The position numbers and the translations under genes were made by a program. Of a DNA stretch of 40,000 nucleotides, positions 3,671-38,876 are shown piece by piece. This DNA is from Kluyvera cryocrescens NBRC 102467 (GTDB lineage Bacteria > Pseudomonadota > Gammaproteobacteria > Enterobacterales > Enterobacteriaceae), in the NCBI RefSeq assembly GCF_001571285.1, contig NZ_BCTM01000015.1, positions 94,871-134,870 of the forward strand, in the 5' to 3' direction. The notes below the pieces were generated by a model. The model made no database searches and was not told the origin of the DNA. It worked only from the letters and a program-made list of their open reading frames with translations. Every line of letters starts with the position of its first letter. The first letter of the stretch is position 1.

Positions 3671-5965
3671 GTGTCAGAGTTGTTATCCCTCGTGCTCTTT
3701 CTGGCTTCTATTGCAATTTATGCATGGAAGGCGGGGCGTAATAAATGGTGGTTTGCTGCCACCCTAGCGGTACTGGGCCTGTTTGTGGTCCTTAATATTA
3801 CGCTGTATGCAAGTGACTATTTCACCGGCGATGGTATCAACGATGCGGTGCTCTACACCCTGACGAATAGCCTGACCGGCGCCGGGGTGGGCAAATACAT
3901 TCTCCCCGGTCTCGGAATTGTTGTGGCGCTGATTGCCGTCTTTGGCGGCCTAGGCTGGCTGCTGCGCCGCCGCCGTCATCATCCCCATCACTTTGGCTAT
4001 AGCCTGCTGGCGCTGATCCTGGCGGTCGGTTCGGTGGACGCCAGCCCGGCGTTTCGCCAGATTAGCGAGCTGGTAAAATCACAATCGCGTGATGGCGATC
4101 CTGACTTCTCGGCCTACTATAAAGAACCGTCGAAGACTATCCCGAATCCCAAACTAAACCTCGTTTATATCTATGGTGAAAGCCTTGAACGCACCTACTT
4201 TGACGAGCAGGCTTTCCCGAATCTGGCCCCTGAACTGGGCGCGCTAAAGAACGAAGGGCTGGATTTTAGTCACACCATGCAGCTACCGGGTACCGACTAC
4301 ACGATTGCCGGAATGGTCGCCTCTCAGTGTGGCATTCCGCTATTCGCGCCGTTTGAAGGCAATGCCTCCGCCTCGCTCTCAAGCTTTTTCCCACAGAATA
4401 TCTGCCTCGGCGATATTCTGAAGAACTCCGGCTACGAAAACTACTTCGTGCAAGGGGCTAACCTGCGCTTTGCCGGCAAAGACGTGTTCCTGAAATCGCA
4501 CGGTTTTGACTACCTGTACGGCGCCGAAGAGTTGAAAACCACCGTCGCCGACCCGTCCTATAAGAATGACTGGGGTTACTACGATGACACCGTGCTGGAT
4601 GAAGCCTGGAAAAAATTTGAGGCCCTCTCCCGCGAAGGCAAACGCTTCTCACTGTTTACCTTAACCGTAGACACTCACCATCCGGACGGTTTTATCTCGC
4701 GAACCTGTCACCGTAAACGCTATGACATCAACGGCAAAGCGAATCAGTCATTTAGCGCCGTGGCCTGTAGCCAGGAAAATATTGCGGAATTTATCAATAA
4801 GATAAAAGCGTCACCGTGGTTCAAAAACACCATTATCGTCGTTTCTTCCGATCACCTGGCGATGAAAAATACCGCATGGGATGAGCTGAACAAACAAGAC
4901 CGCAGCAATCTGTTCTTCGTCTTACGCGGTGACAAACCAGAAGAGCAGGATCTGTTGGCGGTGAAGCGTAACACCATGGATAACGGCGCCACGGTGCTGG
5001 ATATCCTCGGTGGCGACAACTTTATCGGCCTCGGACGCAGCAGCCTGTCCGGGCAGTCGCTTTCCGAAGTGTTCCTCAACATGAAAGAAAAAGTGTTGGC
5101 CTGGAAGCCCGACGTCATCCGTCTGTGGAATTTCCCGAAAGAGATGAAAACCTTCTCTATCGACACCCAGAAAAACATGATTGCCTTCTCCGGTAGCCAT
5201 TTCCGCCTGCCGTTGCTGCTGCGCGTTTCGGATAACCGCGTTGAACCCCTGCCGGAAAGTGAGTATTCCGCACCACTGCGCTACCAGTTGGCCGATTTTG
5301 CTCCGCGCGATAACTTCGTTTGGGTCGACCGCTGCTACAAAATGGCGCAACTGTGGTCGCCTGCGCTGTCGCTTTCCACCAACTGGTGCGTCTCGCAGGG
5401 CCAGCTCGGCGGCGAGCAGAAAGTGCAGCAGGTCGATAAAGCCATGTGGAACGGCAAAACCGAATTTAAAGACACGGTGATCGACATGGTGCGCTACAAG
5501 GGCAACGTCGACTCGCTGAAAATCGTCGATAACGATATTCGCTATAAAGCAGACAGCTTTATTTTCAACGTAGCCGGTGCACCTGAAGAGGTGAAAAGTT
5601 TTAGCGGCATTTCACGTCCGGAGTCCTGGGGACGGTGGTCCAACGCGCAGTTGGGTAAAGAGGTAAAGATTGAGTATCAGCATCCGCTGCCGAAGCGCTT
5701 CGATCTGGTGATCACCGCCAAAGCCTATGGCCCTAACGCTAATAAGCCGATCCCGGTACGCGTGGGTAAAAATGAACAGTTGCTCACGCTGAACAACGAC
5801 GTCACCACCACCACGCTGCACTTCGAGAACCCGGCAGATGCCAATACGCTGGTGATCGTGCCGCCGGATCCGCAGTCAACCAACGATGGTAATATTCTCG
5901 GGCACTCCCCGCGCCAGCTTGGGATTGGCATGGTGGAAATCAAAGTAGTTGCCTCTGAAGGCTAA
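3671..5965 (+). CDS. opgB: Phosphoglycerol transferase I (osmoregulated periplasmic glucan biosynthesis)
   Basis: 764 aa with a GTG start. It is collinear with E. coli OpgB/MdoB (MSELLS..., [54 protein letters not shown]). Confidence 0.95.
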
Positions 5966-32833: not shown

Positions 32834-33190
32834 CTACTTTCCGGCGATGTATTCCACATCCATCAAGGCGCAGTCGACAAAACCAATACGGGCGAGCGTG
32901 GTGGCGGGGCCTTTGGCAACGAACGGCACGCGGTATTCATCATCCTCAATAGTCACTTTGCCAAATACCAGCTCTGGCGTCAGTGTACCGAGGGTGCTTT
33001 TTTCGCGATACCAGTGGGGGAAACGGCCTCGTAAGTAGTCATCTTTTACCCTTAACAAGGCTTTTCGGGAAAGTTCAAGGCGACAAATAGCGGTATCATC
33101 CGAGTCGACCTCATGAATAAGAAATATCACCGTAACGCCCGAAGTCAGCAGGGCACAAAATAGTGCAGTCACTAATAATGTTTTTTTCAT
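32834..33190 (-). CDS. YebF/Cmi-family protein, colicin M immunity protein-like, N-terminally membrane-anchored
   Basis: 118 aa with an N-terminal hydrophobic anchor (LLVTALFCALLTSGVTVIFLI). It aligns to Cmi as recalled: C..(L/V)....A...VK(D/N)DYL.R....W, LGT, VPF.A.GP, then C.....VEY(I)A. The two Cys positions are conserved. Confidence 0.55.
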   Translation of the reverse strand: MKKTLLVTALFCALLTSGVTVIFLIHEVDSDDTAICRLELSRKALLRVKDDYLRGRFPHWYREKSTLGTLTPELVFGKVTIEDDEYRVPFVAKGPATTLARIGFVDCALMDVEYIAGK

Positions 33191-33647
33191 GCTGAAGGTA
33201 AGTTGATTGGTTTAAATAGTTATGACATCAATAGTCATTCTAGAAACAAATAAACGCTTGTAAAGCAACGCATTGGTATTTTTTCGTAAATATCGAGCAA
33301 TTCAATCAATAAAAAATATCAGTCCTACGAAGATAATCGCAAGCGCAATCAACAAAATCATCATTTCATTATACATGCGCTAAAAAAGATACTTAATTAT
33401 TCCTACAGAATTAGAATTATCTAATCTATTATTATTAAAGAGGTCATCTTTGAGCATGTGAAACGGAATGGTTTTATATTTTCCGCTGATAAATTCTTTT
33501 TCAGTAAAGACAATAAATATAACCGCCGGGGGCATTATTCTTCTAATTATTAACTTTCGACGATTGCAACAAGCCCTCTTCTTCGCGGAACAAAATCACA
33601 GGGTCTAAGAGTGGACAACGGCCCCTGTTTGGTGGCAGGATAAAAAG

Positions 33648-33701
33648 ATGAACACAAATGTGACCGTCCTTCGCTCAAACCGTTGGTGGCTGCCTGCATA
33701 A
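33648..33701 (+). CDS. Leader peptide with tandem Trp codons (MNTNVTVLRSNRWWLPA)
   Basis: An AGGA SD (33637-33640) lies 7 nt before ATG 33648. TGG TGG occupies 33684-33689 and TAA 33699-33701. Terminator and antiterminator structures follow immediately. Confidence 0.6.
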   Translation: MNTNVTVLRSNRWWLPA

Positions 33702-33764
33702 CAGGCGGCACGGGTTACGTTACCTATTTTCCAGAAGCCGCCGAAAGGCGGCTTTGTTGTTTCT
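33689..33764 (+). promoter_or_regulatory. Transcription attenuator (segments 1-4) controlling trpS2
   Basis: The 1:2 stem pairs GCUGCCUG (33689-33696) with CAGGCGGC (33702-33709). The 2:3 stem pairs GGCGGC (33704-33709) with GCCGCC (33737-33742). The 3:4 stem is the terminator. Confidence 0.6.
33736..33764 (+). terminator. Intrinsic terminator within the trpS2 leader
   Basis: AGCCGCC-GAAA-GGCGGCU (33736-33753) is followed by UUGUUGUUUCU. It ends 42 nt before the trpS2 ATG. Confidence 0.7.
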
Positions 33765-33805
33765 CAGTGGCGTCTTTCGGCTCAATGCATGATAAGGAGT
33801 CTCTG

Positions 33806-34813
33806 ATGAACACCCTCCACACAATCCTGACCGGCGACCGTCCAACCGGGCAACTGCACCTCGGCCACTACGTGGGGTCTTTACGCCAACGCGTCCAGCT
33901 TCAGTATGAACATCAACAGTTTATCCTGATTGCTGATCTTCAGGGGCTGACGGATAACGGCAGCAATCCGCAGAAAATCAGCCACAACATCCTTGAAGTG
34001 ATGGCCGATTATCTGGCCGTCGGCATCGATCCGCAGCACACCACCATTTGCCTACAGTCAGCCCTCCCCGCGCTGGCTGAGCTGACCGCGCTGTATATGA
34101 ATATCGTCACCGTCGCCCGCGTCGAGCGTAATCCTACGGTCAAAAACGAGATTGCGCAGAAAGGCTTCTCCCGCGCGCTGCCGGTGGGTTTTATGGCCTA
34201 TCCGATAAGCCAGGCCGCAGACATTACGGCTTTCAACGCAGACTTTGTGCCGGTGGGCGACGACCAACTGCCAATGATTGAGCAAACCAACGAGATTGTG
34301 CACAAGATGAATAGCCTGACGACCACACCAGTGCTGCGCCACTGCAAAGCGCTGCTGAGCGACGTCAGCCGTCTACCGGGTATCGACGGCGGGGCGAAAA
34401 TGTCGAAATCGTTAGGCAATACGCTGACGCTTTCGGCCAGTGAAACCGAAATCCACCAAGCGGTGAGTGCCATGTATACCGACCCCAATCATCTGCGGGT
34501 GGCCGATCCGGGGCAAATCGAAGGTAACGTGGTCTTTACCTATCTGGATGCTTTCCATCCGGATAAGGCTCTGGTCGCCGAAATGAAAGCGCATTATCAG
34601 CGCGGTGGCCTTGGCGACAGGCAGTGTAAAAATGTGCTAGAGAGCTGCTTGCAGGAGCTGCTGGCTCCTATCCGCGAACGCCGCGCCAGCGTGATTCAGG
34701 ACAAAGGACAGCTAATGGCGCTACTACGCCAGGGCAGCGAGCGGGCGCACGAAGTGACACAGCAGACGCTGCATGCCGTCAAACGCGGGCTGGGACTACC
34801 GGTACTGTTCTGA
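33806..34813 (+). CDS. trpS2: Tryptophanyl-tRNA synthetase, divergent second-copy type
   Basis: ATG 33806 has an AAGGAG SD at 33794-33799 and gives 335 aa. The HIGH-type motif is TGQLHLGHYVG and the KMSKS motif is GAKMSKSLGN. It is clearly diverged from housekeeping E. coli TrpS (FSGAQPSGELTIGNYMG...) and does not sit at the trpS locus. Confidence 0.85.
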   Translation: MNTLHTILTGDRPTGQLHLGHYVGSLRQRVQLQYEHQQFILIADLQGLTDNGSNPQKISHNILEVMADYLAVGIDPQHTTICLQSALPALAELTALYMNIVTVARVERNPTVKNEIAQKGFSRALPVGFMAYPISQAADITAFNADFVPVGDDQLPMIEQTNEIVHKMNSLTTTPVLRHCKALLSDVSRLPGIDGGAKMSKSLGNTLTLSASETEIHQAVSAMYTDPNHLRVADPGQIEGNVVFTYLDAFHPDKALVAEMKAHYQRGGLGDRQCKNVLESCLQELLAPIRERRASVIQDKGQLMALLRQGSERAHEVTQQTLHAVKRGLGLPVLF

Positions 34814-34846: not shown

Positions 34847-35076
34847 CACCGTGTTTTGATGTTTCGTGTTAATGCCTTTGCAAGACCCTGTTACAAGTAT
34901 GGACATAAGTCAGGTCAGTGTTAGTATGATATTGACGATAGCTATATTTATGCGTGTTTCATTTACGGCCAGGATTGCTGATGATGACCACATGAGTAGC
35001 ACTCTTCACAGCATCCTTCCCCATTTTCATCACGAAACGCGCGCCACTCAGCAACAGGGAACAGAGCGGGTAGCGT

Positions 35077-36144
35077 ATGGACAAAATCAAACGGCATTGG
35101 GCCTGGTATCTCGTGGGTGTCGCGGTGGTCGTTGCCGCCGTGGCGTGGTGGGCGCTGCGTCCACCAGGATTGCCGGACGGGTTCGCCAGCAGCAACGGCA
35201 GAATTGAAGCCACCGAGGTGGATATCGCCACCAAAACCGCCGGGCGTATCGACAATATTCTGGTCAAAGAGGGACAGTTTGTTCGCCAGGGCGAAGTGCT
35301 GGCGCAGATGGATACCCGGGTACTGAACGAGCAGCGTCTGGAAGCCGCCGCACAAATCAAAGAGGCACAAAGCGCCGTGGCCGCCGCCCGCGCGCTGCTC
35401 GATCAGCGGCAAAGCGAAATGCGGGCCAGCGAATCGGTGGTGAAGCAGCGTCAGGCGGAGCTCGATTCCACCGCAAAACGCCATGCCCGCTCCAGCACGC
35501 TGTCCCAGCGCGGCGCAGTATCCGCGCAGCAGCTTGACGATGACCGTGCCGCCGCCGAAAGCGGACGTGCGGCACTCGAATCCGCCAGAGCGCAGGTTTC
35601 AGCCGCCAAAGCCGCCATCGAAGCCGCACGCACCAGTATTATTCAGGCGCAAACCCGCGTCGAAGCCGCTCAGGCCACCGAACGCCGCATCATGGCCGAC
35701 ATTGACGATAGCACGCTGAAAGCCCCGCGCGATGGGCGCATTCAGTACCGCGTTGCCGAGCCGGGTGAAGTGCTGGCCGCCGGTGGTCGGGTACTGAATA
35801 TGGTCGATCTGGCCGACGTCTACATGACCTTCTTCCTGCCAACCGAACAGGCGGGCCTGTTGGCCATCGGCAGTGAAGTGCACATCGTCCTCGACGCCGC
35901 CCCCGATCTGGTGATCCCCGCCAATATCAGCTTTGTCGCCAGCGTCGCCCAGTTCACGCCGAAGACCGTAGAAACCAGCGATGAGCGGCTAAAACTGATG
36001 TTCCGCGTGAAGGCGCGTATCCCGCCAGAGCTGCTGGAAGAACATCTTGAGTACGTGAAAACTGGCCTGCCGGGGATGGCCTATGTGCGGTTGGATAATA
36101 AGCTGCCGTGGCCTGCCGAGCTGGCGGTGAGGCTGCCGCAATGA
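35077..36144 (+). CDS. yhiI: HlyD-family membrane fusion protein YhiI
   Basis: 355 aa, the E. coli YhiI length. It has an N-terminal TM segment and a long Ala/Gln-rich coiled-coil. It is followed by rbbA with an ATGA overlap. Confidence 0.85.
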
Positions 36145-38876
36145 AACAGGATATCTACCCTGCGGTCGCCCGGCTGGAAAACGTCAGTCAGCATTTTGGT
36201 GCCACTACCGCGCTGCGTGACATCACGCTGACCCTGCCCTCCCGTTGTATGGTGGGCCTGATTGGCCCAGACGGCGTAGGCAAATCCAGCCTGTTGTCGC
36301 TGATTGCCGGCGCGCGAGCCATCGAGCAGGGCAACGTGATGGTACTGGGCGGAGATATGCGCGATGCCCACCATCGCCGCGACGTGTGCCCGAAAATCGC
36401 CTGGATGCCGCAGGGGCTAGGTAAAAACCTCTACCACACGTTGTCGGTGTATGAAAATGTCGACTTTTTTGCTCGCCTGTTTGGTCATGATAAAAGTGCG
36501 CGCGAAAGCCGCATCGACTCGCTGCTGCAAAGTACCGGGCTGGCCCCGTTCCGCGACCGTCCAGCGGGGAAACTTTCCGGCGGAATGAAGCAAAAGCTGG
36601 GGTTATGCTGCGCGCTGATCCACGATCCGGAACTGTTGATTCTCGACGAACCGACGACCGGGGTCGACCCCCTTTCAAGGGCGCAGTTCTGGGAGCTTAT
36701 CGACAGCATTCGTGAACGTCAGCCGGAGATGAGCGTACTGGTAGCCACTGCCTATATGGAAGAGGCCGAGCGCTTCGACTGGCTGGTCGCCATGAACGCC
36801 GGGGAAGTGTTGGCCACCGGCAGCGCCGAAACCCTCCGAACGCAAACGGCTACCCAGACGCTGGAACAGGCATTTATCGCGCTGCTGCCAGAAGCGCAGC
36901 GTAATGCGCACCAGCAGGTGATTATCCCACCGCGCGATACCCGCGAAGAAGAGATCGCCATTGAGGCGCGCGGGCTGACCATGCGCTTCGGCGATTTTGT
37001 TGCCGTCGACCATGTTAACTTCCGTATTGCCCGCGGTGAAATCTTTGGCTTCCTCGGCTCCAACGGCTGCGGGAAATCCACCACCATGAAGATGCTGACC
37101 GGTTTGCTGCCAGCCAGCGAAGGGGAAGCCTGGCTGTTTGGCCAGCCGGTCGATCCAAAAGATATCGAGACCCGTCGCCGGGTGGGCTATATGTCGCAGG
37201 CGTTTTCACTTTACAGCGAGTTGAGCGTAAGGCAGAACCTGGAGCTACACGCACGGCTTTTCCATATTCCCGATGCCGAGATCTCCGCCCGTGTCGCTGA
37301 GATGACCGAACGTTTCATGCTGCGCGACGTAGAGGATACGCTGCCCAGCGCGCTGCCGCTCGGTATCCGCCAACGTTTGTCGCTGGCGGTGGCGGTGATC
37401 CATCGCCCGGAAATGTTGATCCTTGATGAACCCACTTCCGGCGTTGATCCAGTGGCCCGCGATATGTTCTGGCAGCTGATGGTCGACCTGGCCCGCCAGG
37501 ATAAAGTGACCATCTTTATTTCCACCCACTTTATGAATGAAGCGGAACGCTGCGACCGAATGTCGCTGATGCACGCGGGCAAAGTGCTGGCCAGCGATAC
37601 CCCGGCGGCGCTGGTCAAGCAGCGCGGCGCCGCAAACCTGGAAGAGGCGTTTATTGCCTGGCTGAAAGACGCCGCCGACCCGGCTCCCGACGCACAGATG
37701 TCCGATGCGCCAGTCAACACCGACGCCGCGCCAGAGCAGCCGCGTCAGGCGTTTAGCCTGCGCCGCCTGTTTAGCTACAGCCGTCGCGAGGCGCTGGAAT
37801 TGCGGCGCGATCCGGTACGATCGACGCTGGCCTTGCTGGGAACGGTGATCCTGATGTTCATCATGGGCTATGGGATCAGCATGGACGTGGAAGATCTGCG
37901 TTTCGCGGTACTCGACCGCGATCAAACGGTAAGCAGCCAGCGCTGGACGCAAAATATTGCCGGATCACGCTACTTTATCGAACGCACACCGCTGGCCAGC
38001 TATGACGAGCTCGACCGGCGAATGCGCGACGGTGAGCTAGCCGTTGCCATCGAAATTCCGCCAAACTTTGGCCGCGACATCGCGCGCGGTACGCCGGTGG
38101 AGATTGGCGTGTGGGTGGATGGCGCAATGCCAAACCGGGCCGAGACAGTTCGCGGCTATGTGCAGGCGATGCATTTAGCCTGGCTGCAGGAGATGGCGGG
38201 GCTACAGCCGAATGCCAGCGGCGATGTTTCGCTGGTTTCTATTGAGACACGCTATCGCTATAACCCTGACGTGAAGAGTCTTCCTGCCATCGTTCCGGCC
38301 GTGATCCCACTGCTGCTAATGATGATCCCAGCCATGCTCAGCGCACTCAGCGTGGTACGGGAAAAAGAGCTGGGCTCCATCATCAACCTGTACGTAACGC
38401 CCACCACCCGCAGCGAGTTTTTACTTGGCAAGCAGATACCGTATATCGTGCTCGGGATGTTTAACTTCCTGCTGCTGTGCGCCCTGTCGGTATTTGTTTT
38501 CGGCGTCCAGCATAAGGGGAGTTTCCTAACGCTGACGCTGGCGGCGCTGCTGTACGTCACTATCGCCACCGGGCTGGGATTGCTGATCTCCACCTTTATG
38601 AAAAGCCAGATCGCGGCGATCTTTGGTACCGCGATCATCACGCTTATCCCGGCAACCCAGTTTTCGGGAATGATCGATCCCGTTGCCTCCCTGGAAGGGC
38701 CAGGCCGATGGATTGGCCAGATCTACCCAACCAGCCATTTTCTGACGATTGCTCGCGGGACATTTTCTAAAGCGCTGGGGCTTAGCGATCTGTGGGTCTC
38801 CTTTATCCCGCTGCTGATTGCGGTGCCATTGGTTTTAGGGCTTTCCGTTTGGCTGCTGAAAAAACAGGAGGGATGA
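36141..38876 (+). CDS. rbbA: Ribosome-associated ATPase RbbA (YhiH): two ABC ATPase domains fused to an ABC-2 permease domain
   Basis: ATG 36141 gives 911 aa, the E. coli RbbA length. The Walker A motifs are GPDGVGKSS and GSNGCGKST, with signature motifs LSGGMKQKL and LPLGIRQRL. The C-terminal part is membrane-embedded. Confidence 0.9.

Follow-up and report, generated by a model that had tools for sequence, protein, structure and literature searches.

Among the described systems closest in design to the leader reported here is the trpL attenuator of the trpEDCBA operon (E. coli and Salmonella). It likewise carries two adjacent UGG codons and four RNA segments that pair either as 1:2 and 3:4 or as 2:3, has an intrinsic terminator, and places its stop codon so that a ribosome covers segment 2; the signal, charged tRNA-Trp, is one that we infer for Kluyvera as well. 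Several features set the two apart. TrpL controls biosynthesis, whereas the Kluyvera leader precedes a tRNA synthetase gene; trpL has a 5' UTR and a Shine-Dalgarno (SD) sequence, whereas the Kluyvera leader is probably leaderless; the Kluyvera element has an extra conserved SD-sequestering module past the terminator; and it gave no match to Trp_leader RF00513 even at E <= 10, with no sequence or structure similarity between the two. The pheM leader of E. coli, likewise a leader-peptide attenuator, precedes the aminoacyl-tRNA synthetase operon pheST and senses the cognate charged tRNA, but it uses Phe codons and serves the essential housekeeping PheRS, whereas trpS2 is an auxiliary, dispensable paralogue, and the sequences are unrelated. 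In another phylum, trpRS1 of Streptomyces coelicolor is said to have been placed by Vecchione and Sello (J Bacteriol 2010) under a Trp-codon leader attenuator, with an enzyme that is reportedly indolmycin-resistant. Its likeness to the Kluyvera leader is one of design: a Trp-codon leader combined with a terminator and antiterminator precedes an auxiliary TrpRS whose expression would rise upon failure of Trp-tRNA charging. Some Streptomyces are also predicted to have attenuators ahead of trpS, and trpS2 of S. avermitilis is mentioned by name (PMC1262725).

Two further groups of systems bear on the comparison. In erm/cat-type leaders, a ribosome stall on the leader re-pairs downstream segments and thereby frees a sequestered SD sequence, and the Kluyvera locus similarly has a hairpin around the SD sequence and AUG whose 5' strand has an alternative partner. 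Transcriptional and translational attenuation are combined in ermK. The differences are that the stall is caused there by a drug-bound ribosome and here by a hungry codon, that the relay considered here has six segments, and that SD release here is predicted and is disfavoured at equilibrium. In the leaderless attenuators of S. meliloti (trpL/rnTrpL, PMC6614838) and of mycobacteria (polycysteine short ORFs, bioRxiv 10.1101/834739), the transcript opens directly with the leader ORF, whose translation controls downstream expression according to one amino acid, as proposed here. Their transcription starts were mapped experimentally, whereas the Kluyvera start is deduced from promoter geometry. 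We know of no report of a gammaproteobacterial leaderless leader-peptide attenuator.

On trpS2 itself, transposon screens in Salmonella and Klebsiella indicate that its presence makes the otherwise essential trpS dispensable (PMC3487940, PMC11481867), and in Salmonella trpS2 was up 2-fold together with trpDCBA in biofilms (PMC2805695). Salmonella TrpS2 protein is increased in a miaA mutant, which the authors read as relaxed attenuation at a tandem-TGG leader, citing pheM together with trpS2 (bioRxiv 10.64898/2026.09.09.750475). That one sentence corrects the preliminary description of the present locus, which knew of no account for an enterobacterial trpS2. The Salmonella leader may be a homologue of the Kluyvera leader. 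Naville and Gautheret 2010 do not mention trpS. Beyond the passing remark in the 2026 preprint, this widely conserved element has never been properly described.

We analyzed a stretch of 40,000 nucleotides from Kluyvera cryocrescens NBRC 102467 (the window), in which the features listed in Table 1 were located. The product of trpS2, previously taken for a second TrpRS, is a genuine member of the TrpRS II family: it scored 228.5 bits against TIGR00233 (cut-off 176.75) and matched the TrpRS II of D. radiodurans (PDB 2A4M/1YI8) over residues 7-330 with E = 2e-112. The class I motifs HLGH and KMSKS are present in its translation. Trp is absent from the protein in 71 of 73 orthologs and, among the matches listed, in all 120 database homologs, which are almost all from Klebsiella or Kluyvera and include none from Salmonella. 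The residue that we take to be equivalent to His43 is, by eye, apparently Gln (ADLQGLT), and we do not claim it as the residue behind indolmycin resistance.

Table 1. Features of the trpS2 leader region of K. cryocrescens (positions in the 40,000-nucleotide window)
Feature	Position	Strand	Remarks
Putative -35-like hexamer TGGACA	33612..33617	+	5/6 of consensus; 18-nt spacer to -10
Putative extended -10	33633..33641	+	TG 33633-34, CAGGAT 33636-41; includes AGGA 33637-40
Leader ORF MNTNVTVLRSNRWWLPA + TAA	33648..33701	+	17 codons, TAA at 33699-701; read from sequence
Tandem Trp codons UGG UGG	33684..33689	+	putative sensing site; invariant in alignments A2 and A3
Segment 1 GCUGCCUG	33689..33696	+	5' arm of 1:2 anti-antiterminator; begins at last base of second UGG
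Segment 2 CAGGCGGC	33702..33709	+	partner of segment 1, or of segment 3 via GGCGGC 33704-09
Predicted intrinsic terminator	33734..33764	+	9-bp stem GAAGCCGCC/GGCGGCUUU, GAAA loop, U-rich tail
Segment 3 GCCGCC	33737-42	+	pairs with segment 4 or segment 2
Segment 4 GGCGGC	33747-52	+	3' strand of predicted terminator
Segment 5 GGCGUCUUUCGGC	33769..33781	+	contains anti-SD; pairs with SD region or terminator apex 33740-33752
trpS2 SD AAGGAG and start ATG	33794..33808	+	SD 33794-99, ATG 33806-08; both sequestered in default fold
trpS2, tryptophan--tRNA ligase, TrpRS II type	33806..34813	+	335 aa, without Trp residues

The leader ORF with its adjacent TGG TGG codons, the four pairing segments and the terminator had all been proposed before, and their positions agree with the sequence throughout. 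The 1:2 pairing amounts to 8 bp, one of them G-U. In the terminator, 33734-42 pairs with 33747-55 (6 GC pairs among the 9 bp) around a GNRA loop, and the tail UUGUUGUUUCU, which ends at 33764, places 8 U within the 12 nt after the stem. Isolated folding energies were -15.4 kcal/mol for 1:2, -16.8 kcal/mol for the 3:4 terminator and, with segment 1 masked and segment 4 absent, -13.8 kcal/mol for the 2:3 antiterminator with its inner hairpin. When segment 1 was left free, 1:2 formed and segment 3 stayed single-stranded. The minimum free energy (MFE) structure of 33637-33770 holds exactly the 1:2 hairpin and the terminator, the fold anticipated in the preliminary description; its z-score was -2.49, with 4 of 200 shuffles folding equally well. 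The terminator was also called by a consensus scan with a loose pattern (4 sites against 2.1 expected in the region), and the region around the leader contains no co-directional upstream gene that could own it. The 2:3 antiterminator closes its 27-nt loop with only 6 GC pairs and is less stable than the terminator; therefore, the switch must be kinetic, as in trpL.

The strongest evidence against a chance origin of the element is its conservation. Orthologous loci comprised the best 80 of a genome-collection scan, with one genome per species, and two plasmid copies; Salmonella is outside this set. The earlier proposal had been made to depend on conservation of the leader ORF and its WW codons, and an ATG-started WW ORF of 15-29 codons was found about 150-185 nt upstream of trpS2 in 70 of these best 80 genomic loci and in both plasmid copies. 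Two further loci of the 80 have a single W and otherwise the whole element. The taxa with a WW leader include Enterobacterales, Aeromonadales, Vibrionales, Alteromonadales and others, so that an enterobacterial scope, as first assumed, covers Enterobacterales rightly and is too narrow for an element far older and wider within Gammaproteobacteria. The start codon is ATG in 70 of 70 sequences, and the second codon is mostly AAY. Beyond this, conservation across the best 80 loci is limited to WW and the pairing segments, while the other peptide codons turn over: the residues after WW vary by lineage (LPA/LPS, QP, CCS, RLD, RS.., RTTCGAGFV..) and WW is followed by the stop codon at a distance of 2 to 14 codons. 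The stop codon nevertheless lies consistently within or beside segment 2.

The helices are conserved as well. Counted per cell in 31 Enterobacterales sequences, 1:2 was paired in 97.8%, 2:3 in 98.9% and 3:4 in 97.8% of cells. Four of these sequences carry U-A in place of C-G in 2:3, within a compensatory three-way change (C to U in segment 2, G to A in segment 3 and C to U in segment 4), and three pairs of the terminator show compensatory changes. Covariation of segments 2, 3 and 4, for which the preliminary description had suggested looking, is thus present among these 31 sequences, and it rests on few columns because the segments are nearly invariant in Enterobacterales. Duplex-shuffling z-scores for 1:2 and 2:3 were modest in Enterobacterales, at about -1, partly because the shuffling windows clipped segment 2 and GC-rich strings pair even when shuffled; we take the support for 1:2 and 2:3 from the alignment counts and not from duplex shuffling. 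In other lineages, the MFE structure contains a 1:2-equivalent hairpin that starts inside WW, with Morganella and some RWWQP-type sequences as exceptions. Each of the mutually exclusive helices shows covariation in the marine lineage. A terminator with a covarying A-tract/U-tract is kept in Enterobacterales, Aeromonas and Morganella. The U-tract is absent from two lineages, the RWWQP-type enterobacterial group and the marine group, and U-tracts are poor in several Enterobacter loci, which indicates that termination is not universal to the family. One consensus structure for all lineages was impossible because the register of the pairing between the terminator apex and segment 5 (apex:5) is shifted by one base between lineages (A3), and pairs were counted lineage by lineage. 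A cmscan of 33000-34200 against Rfam, on both strands at E <= 10, found no leader, T-box or Isr family; it returned only three matches, which is chance level. Rfam presumably includes an isrQ model. An identity of the leader with IsrQ was rejected, as IsrQ lies on the strand opposite trpS2 in Salmonella and Rfam gave no match on either strand at E <= 10.

Upstream of the leader, positions were counted in 70 distinct orthologous regions anchored on the leader ATG. T, T and T-or-G are enriched at -36..-34 (40-46 of 70), and the -10 region shows T-15 in 47, G-14 in 50, T-12 in 43, A-11 in 57 and T-7 in 57 of the 70 regions; apart from the -35, TG and -10 positions, the upstream sequence is unconserved. 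The AGGA that had been read as the SD sequence of the leader falls into this conserved -10, where orthologs have TACGGT, TAGGGT, TATGTT or TAAGTT, none of them an SD sequence, and the median SD strength among orthologs was -3.1 kcal/mol for the leader versus -7.3 kcal/mol for trpS2. The earlier assignment is therefore doubtful, and AGGA probably belongs to the -10 hexamer instead of acting as an SD sequence, although in the window it could serve as one for transcripts starting further upstream. From the spacing of the -10 relative to the AUG, transcription is predicted to start at or beside the A of the leader ATG. By this geometry, the leader mRNA is probably leaderless.

On these grounds, namely the sequence anatomy, the energetics and the conservation with covariation of all these helices, we consider it highly probable that the element is a ribosome-mediated leader-peptide transcription attenuator of the trpL/pheM type in front of an auxiliary, Trp-free TrpRS II gene. 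The geometry fits: segment 1 lies under a ribosome that waits at either UGG, and segment 2 lies under one that has reached the stop codon. The trpL/pheM logic put forward in the preliminary description thus holds for geometry, alternative helices and conservation, while regulation by Trp-tRNA is what we infer from them. Transcription would begin at the predicted extended -10 promoter, probably at the A of the leader AUG, and the 17 codons would be translated by a ribosome close behind RNA polymerase. With ample charged tRNA-Trp, this ribosome would pass UGG UGG and sit at the stop codon, covering segment 2, or would already have departed after the stop codon, allowing 1:2 to form. By either route, segment 3 would be free for segment 4 and transcription would be expected to terminate at about 33760-64. 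If charged tRNA-Trp is scarce, be it because the cell is starved of Trp, because the housekeeping TrpRS is inhibited or lost or because UGG is poorly decoded, the ribosome would wait at UGG UGG and cover segment 1; 2:3 could then pair and block the terminator, and polymerase would continue into trpS2.

The 42 nt between the terminator tail and the trpS2 ATG, a distance that had been given correctly but treated as mere spacing, are themselves a conserved, covarying SD-sequestering hairpin (33758-33812, -18.7 kcal/mol). The competing apex:5 duplex has an energy of -22.6 kcal/mol and a z-score of -2.7 in the window and is paired in 88.8% of cells in alignment A2; in three lineages its z-score is about -3, and its variant pairs covary. 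Of all helices, the SD helix covaries most strongly (8 of 11 pairs in the marine group), and both the hairpin and its apex:5 alternative are kept in all lineages, including those without a U-tract. In the window, opening the ribosome-binding site cost 12.1 kcal/mol in the default ensemble and only 4.9 kcal/mol once apex:5 had formed; for Enterobacterales, the corresponding means were 10.2 and 3.6 kcal/mol. We chose this calculation over the MFE structure with apex:5 enforced, in which weak SD pairings persist. At equilibrium, with the leader masked up to WW+8 nt or stop+8 nt, the SD sequence stayed paired in almost all sequences; therefore, any relay to the SD sequence must be kinetic. Further, 5:SD remained 2.6 kcal/mol better than 4:5 with 2:3 enforced, and the state with 1:2 and apex:5 lay 8.9 kcal/mol above the MFE. 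The hairpin and its alternative partner suggest coupled translational control, but only if the choice of helix is kinetic. In such a second layer, segment 5 would by default sequester the trpS2 SD and AUG. In an antiterminated transcript, segment 4 would be free and, joined later by the entire terminator apex, could capture segment 5 first and unmask the trpS2 ribosome-binding site, while transcripts leaking through a formed terminator would stay translationally silent. This second layer we regard as a tentative reading with slightly less than an even chance of being right.

In its most extended form, which we offer tentatively and are more inclined to doubt than to accept, the element would represent an ancient regulatory RNA family spread across Gammaproteobacteria, and its leaderless WW mini-ORF would set off a kinetic relay of six segments (1:2, 2:3, 3:4, apex:5, 5:SD). 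If so, a single stall would avert termination and at the same time commit the RNA to a fold that is long-lived and translatable, transcripts leaking past a formed terminator would be locked in the SD-sequestered fold, and lineages without a U-tract would rely on the translational half alone. The Trp-free back-up TrpRS would then sustain translation while its housekeeping counterpart is starved or is poisoned, for instance by antibiotics of the indolmycin type, with possible relevance to the plasmid-borne copies in Klebsiella and E. coli.

The same hairpin raises the alternative that control is mainly translational, as in erm/cat leaders, with a stall at WW exposing the trpS2 SD and the terminator being a minor, lineage-specific addition. 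The persistence of the SD hairpin and apex:5 even where the U-tract is missing, the SD helix as the one that covaries most (the 8 of 11 marine pairs) and the weak U-tracts of several Enterobacter loci would all suit it. We nevertheless judge it unlikely, since the window has a strong canonical terminator (9 bp, GNRA loop, 8 U in 12 nt), Enterobacterales, Aeromonas and Morganella retain a terminator with covarying tracts, and masking of the leader did not open the SD in equilibrium modelling.

Very improbable, in our view, is a leader whose ORF is not translated, that is, one responsive to a protein, tRNA or sRNA, or an independent sRNA, with WW as a by-product of a GG-rich pairing segment. UGG UGG does join the 1:2 helix in several lineages, so RNA pairing constrains these bases too; a good leader SD is missing in most species; and the sRNA IsrQ has been reported in the STM4508/STM4509 intergenic region of Salmonella (PMC2330248). 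Against this stand the intact WW frame of 15-29 codons in 70 of the 80 best loci despite codon turnover, the stop codon consistently in or beside segment 2, an invariant ATG start whose distance from the -10 is fixed, as leaderless translation requires, and the lack of a T-box or any other match in the Rfam scan.

Least credible, and close to negligible, is a TnaC-like leader, in which the nascent peptide in the ribosome exit tunnel would sense free Trp, stall at or near the stop codon and block Rho or alter RNA folding, making trpS2 responsive to free Trp and not to tRNA charging: the leader does contain Trp, and in Enterobacterales a Pro stands two codons ahead of the stop codon (WWLP[AS]*), the stretch 33720-33733 downstream of segment 2 is pyrimidine-rich and unstructured and could be rut-like, and any termination in lineages without a U-tract would call for a factor such as Rho, but TnaC requires conserved spacing of W12, D16 and P24 whereas only WW is kept in the peptides here, at 2 to 14 codons from the stop, the LP codons are conserved because they coincide with pairing segment 1, and induction of a TrpRS at high free Trp makes little physiological sense.

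The proposed attenuator of trpS2 would add a well-supported cis-regulatory RNA family that is absent from Rfam, so genome annotation cannot name the element. It occurs in Klebsiella, Enterobacter, Citrobacter, Kluyvera, Morganella, Aeromonas, Photobacterium and others. Attenuation as proposed would explain why the second, Trp-free TrpRS is silent until charging of tRNA-Trp fails. With its probable leaderless start and covarying SD switch, the element would be a compact natural system in which one stall is relayed to both transcription and translation. It also bears on TrpRS inhibitors as antibacterials: a mobilized, inducible back-up enzyme would be a ready route to resistance if TrpS2 is insensitive. 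The plasmid copies of trpS2 lie on segments flanked by IS26/IS3000, with the leader intact.

Re-reading of the leader upstream of trpS2, the second TrpRS gene, bore out every base-level statement of the preliminary description, which had proposed attenuation of the trpL/pheM type. Folding of 33637-33770 (-45.3 kcal/mol, z = -2.49; 4 of 200 shuffles fold equally well) returned precisely the hairpin of segments 1 and 2 and the terminator of segments 3 and 4 that it had put forward, which alone are worth -15.4 and -16.8 kcal/mol, respectively. If segment 1 is masked and segment 4 has yet to be transcribed, segments 2 and 3 pair at -13.8 kcal/mol, GGCGGC/GCCGCC closing a loop that holds a small inner hairpin; when segment 1 is available, 1:2 pairs and segment 3 is left single-stranded. 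The 3:4 hairpin was also called by a consensus terminator scan, whose pattern is not rare (4 sites vs. 2.1 expected). The genes upstream of the leader (YebF-like protein, SlyA/MarR regulator, EmrA-like adaptor) are all divergent, and there is therefore no co-directional gene for which this hairpin could be the terminator.

Features of the trpS2 region (window positions)
Feature	Position	Sequence or remark
Low-GC intergenic stretch	33190-33610	29-33% GC vs. about 55-60% in flanking genes; between YebF-like gene and trpS2 promoter
Promoter-like site within it	33264-33237	minus strand
Predicted -35	33612-33617	TGGACA
Predicted TG of extended -10	33633-33634	TG
Predicted -10	33636-33641	CAGGAT
AGGA	33637-33640	
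Leader ORF	33648-33701	MNTNVTVLRSNRWWLPA-TAA; ATG at 33648
Tandem Trp codons	33684-33689	UGG UGG
Segment 1	33689-33696	GCUGCCUG
Leader stop	33699-33701	UAA
Segment 2	33702-33709	CAGGCGGC
Terminator stem, 9 bp	33734-33755	GAAGCCGCC-GAAA-GGCGGCUUU
Segment 3	33737-33742	GCCGCC, within the stem
Terminator apex	33740-33752	
Segment 4	33747-33752	GGCGGC, within the stem
Terminator tail	to 33764	UUGUUGUUUCU
SD-burying hairpin	33758-33812	-18.7 kcal/mol
Segment 5	33769-33781	contains invariant CUUUCGG
trpS2 SD	33794-33799	AAGGAG
trpS2	33806-34813	ATG at 33806
Promoter-like site	34900-34927	between trpS2 and HlyD-family gene
HlyD-family adaptor gene and rbbA	35077-38876	downstream of trpS2, same strand; rbbA, ribosome-associated ATPase/ABC transporter

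Ribosome positions relative to the segments share the geometry of trpL. When either UGG occupies the A site, the ribosome would cover the mRNA to about 8-13 nt downstream, that is, the whole of segment 1; segment 2 could then pair with segment 3 ahead of the synthesis of segment 4, and polymerase would read through. At the UAA, the ribosome would instead cover segment 2 and 3:4 would form, while its release would allow 1:2 and then 3:4 to form; transcription should then end at about 33760-33764. Because antiterminator 2:3 is less stable than terminator 3:4, the decision would be kinetic, as in trpL. We regard the reading of the trpS2 leader as a trpL/pheM-type attenuator, a textbook mechanism class, as essentially right on sequence grounds.

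The preliminary description had staked this reading on persistence of the leader ORF and its Trp codons at orthologous loci. Using a protein-anchored scan with one genome per species, we collected the best 80 loci (TrpS2 identity 64-95%), from Enterobacterales, Aeromonas, Morganella, Photobacterium, Vibrio, Psychromonas, Pseudoalteromonas, Cocleimonas, Marinomonas, Acinetobacter, and others. In 70 of them and in two additional plasmid copies, tandem Trp codons (WW) lie within an ATG-started ORF, 15-29 codons long, whose start codon precedes that of trpS2 by 150-195 nt. Among the best 80 loci, the leader is absent at seven Acinetobacter loci and in Pseudoalteromonas luteoviolacea, and a single-Trp leader with the rest of the element intact occurs in Superficieibacter and Dryocola. 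As judged from these comparisons, the element is far older and more widespread than the preliminary description assumed. The leader peptides are unrelated apart from WW (e.g., MNINHAVLTVNRWWLPS, MNMTAFNHNYWWCCS, MQVNHTFNLISVSWWRSIS, and MMNNKITLCLSHNDFWWRTTCGAGFVIQF), and the stretch past WW is anywhere between 2 and 14 codons long, which favors sensing at the codon level and disfavors a TnaC-like sensor peptide. The Superficieibacter leader has TTG TGG, one point mutation from TGG TGG (L036, 2844-2903), and the Dryocola peptide ends in ...SGWRVL* (L041, about 2799-2858); these natural variants could reveal the importance of the tandem codon.

In an alignment of 31 Enterobacterales leaders, 97.8% of cells are paired in both helix 1:2 and terminator 3:4, and 98.9% in helix 2:3, compared to only 31-52% in slid controls. 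The segments are nearly invariant in this order, so covariation is limited, though telling: the outermost pair of the GC core shifts jointly in segments 2, 3, and 4 of Citrobacter-type sequences (GGCGGC/GCCGCC/GGCGGC to GGCGGU/ACCGCC/GGCGGU), and in 11 sequences the A/U pairs at the terminator foot are UA instead of AU. Other lineages differ in segment sequence and have the same complementarities, as in helix 2:3 of the marine group (AGCGGCGCUGAAUC/UAUUCAAAGCCGUC, with the subgroup variant GCAGC.../...GCUGC). From WW onward, the minimum free energy (MFE) fold of most sequences consists of a 1:2 hairpin starting in or just past WW, a middle hairpin, and an SD-burying hairpin; some Morganella and RWWQP-type sequences (lineages are named by peptide tail) depart from this arrangement.

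No U-tract follows the middle hairpin in two lineages, the RWWQP-type enterobacteria (loci L013, L016, L030, L031, L037, and L038) and the marine group (L050-L082), and these leaders cannot be classical intrinsic-terminator attenuators. They still have WW, helices 1:2 and 2:3, the pairing of the apex with segment 5, and the SD hairpin. Their control output is presumably translational or factor-dependent, with an ambiguous direction.

When 70 distinct upstream regions were stacked on the leader ATG, conserved positions were limited to TT(T/G) at -36 to -34 (40-46/70), T at -15 (47/70), G at -14 (50/70), T at -12 (43/70), A at -11 (57/70), and T at -7 (57/70). These positions correspond to a predicted extended -10 sigma-70 promoter (TGnTAnnnT) with its -35 element, which puts +1 at the first base of the leader AUG. 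The AGGA lies where the preliminary description had placed it; its assignment as the leader SD is doubtful, since it lies within the predicted -10 hexamer, where orthologs have TACGGT, TAGGGT, TATGTT, or TAAGTT. It could still act as an SD in the window for transcripts beginning further upstream. Leader SDs are weak (median -3.1 kcal/mol vs. -7.3 for trpS2), with only 7 of 73 reaching -6, and the start codon is ATG in 70/70. Because of the predicted +1, the weak SD, and the invariant ATG, the leader mRNA is probably leaderless, its start being placed by the promoter position. We know of no leaderless leader-peptide attenuator in gammaproteobacteria. Precedents for a leaderless start are the trpL of S. 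meliloti (PMC6614838) and mycobacterial Cys attenuators (bioRxiv 10.1101/834739). Codon 2 of the leader is mostly AAC or AAT (A at base 1 in 62, A at base 2 in 61, and then C/T in 52 of 70 distinct sequences), and trpS2 too starts with ATGAAC in many species. This Asn preference may perhaps be tied to leaderless initiation.

The 42 nt past the terminator suggest a candidate second switch rather than a spacer. In the hairpin formed there, GGCGUCUU pairs with the SD, and the terminator tail with the AUG region. The anti-SD helix is conserved in Enterobacterales, with compensatory changes, and 8 of 11 pairs covary in the marine group. Segment 5 is also complementary to the terminator apex (duplex -22.6 kcal/mol, z = -2.7; 88.8% of cells paired in the Enterobacterales alignment), and the two strands change in concert from lineage to lineage. 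The RNAalifold consensus of the marine group is this apex:5 duplex, with compensatory changes in 8 of 20 pairs. The covarying partners thus number three for segment 3 (2, 4, and 5) and two for segment 5 (apex and SD).

Terminator apex and segment 5 by lineage
Lineage	Apex	Segment 5
Enterobacterales (WWLP type)	CGCCGAAAGGCG	CGUCUUUCGGCU
RWWQP-type enterobacteria	GCCGCCGGAAGGCG	GUCUCCGGUGGC
Marine group	GCCGUCGGAAGAC	GUCUCCGACGGU
Marine subgroup	GCUGCUGGAAGGUA	AUCUCCAGUAGC
Aeromonadaceae (WWRLD type)	CGCCGGAUCGGGCGGC	GGCUCCCGACCGGC

In the window, apex:5 formation lowers the energy needed to open the RBS from 12.1 to 4.9 kcal/mol, and the Enterobacterales mean drops from 10.2 to 3.6 kcal/mol. 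Covariation of both segment 5 pairings across lineages points to a possible translational switch linked to attenuation, albeit with real counter-evidence. After antitermination, the free segment 4 would take segment 5 while the SD is still to be transcribed; once the ribosome departs and 1:2 re-forms, segment 3 would join the duplex, and the resulting fold would be translatable. If the terminator formed and polymerase leaked past, segment 5 would pair with the SD instead. Counting against this relay, 5:SD is better than 4:5 by 2.6 kcal/mol when 2:3 is enforced, and the state with 1:2 and apex:5 lies 8.9 kcal/mol above the MFE; leader masking leaves the SD closed at equilibrium in folding. The probable leaderless start and the covarying SD switch deserve experimental attention.

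The trpS2 product is a genuine tryptophan--tRNA ligase (TIGR00233, 228.5 bits vs. a cut-off of 176.75), and its closest solved structure is the auxiliary-type TrpRS II of Deinococcus radiodurans (E = 2e-112, PDB 2A4M/1YI8). It contains no Trp, where 335 residues would predict about 4-5; Trp is likewise absent from 71 of 73 leader-bearing orthologs, 10 of 10 leaderless loci, and 120 of 120 database homologs listed. Being Trp-free suits an enzyme needed when Trp-tRNA is short, though the absence of Trp is a family-wide trait. Protein identity marks the window as Kluyvera-like (95% to K. sichuanensis), and E. coli is without trpS2 save for two plasmids (5426 genomes scanned). This distribution agrees with transposon screens in which trpS is dispensable in hosts with trpS2 (PMC3487940, PMC11481867).

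The trpS2 leader is widely distributed among clinically relevant bacteria. We did not find a gammaproteobacterial trpS2 attenuator in Rfam, in the attenuator survey of Naville and Gautheret, or in the trpS2/STM4508 literature examined. Attenuation of trpRS1 in S. coelicolor was reportedly demonstrated by Vecchione and Sello in 2010. For auxiliary TrpRS of Streptomyces, attenuation was predicted (PMC1262725). The one gammaproteobacterial description found is a single-sentence remark on the Salmonella trpS2 leader in a September 2026 preprint, in which TrpS2 protein is elevated in a miaA mutant, an effect that its authors ascribe to relaxed attenuation at a leader with tandem TGG (bioRxiv 10.64898/2026.09.09.750475). 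Apart from that remark, the trpS2 attenuator is undescribed in the sources examined, the mechanism itself being classical. Experimental support for the mechanism is indirect and limited to Salmonella. Since Citrobacter leaders are present in the alignment, the Salmonella leader is likely homologous to that of the window. In Salmonella biofilms, trpS2 is up 2-fold along with trpDCBA (PMC2805695). An sRNA, IsrQ, has been reported from the Salmonella STM4508/STM4509 intergenic region, on the strand opposite trpS2 (PMC2330248).

Plasmids of E. coli, Shigella, and Klebsiella have acquired trpS2 complete with its promoter and leader (L001, L002, and plasmid matches H10-H17), including pB379_2 (L001, E. 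coli IncFIB, 4021-5186) and pKTa005_5 (L002, 3972-5127). These copies are flanked by IS26, IS1, or IS3000, in one case with a FosA8-like remnant, and many Klebsiella plasmids hold merely a 3' fragment of trpS2, unannotated or labeled tRNA ligase. P. luteoviolacea is a producer of indolmycin. In strain HI1 (L066, 620-3996), a leaderless TrpRS II-type gene directly follows methyltransferase, glyoxalase-family, and class I/II aminotransferase genes, with an adjoining LuxR regulator; the gene content of this locus is suggestive of a biosynthetic cluster that includes a TrpRS for self-resistance.
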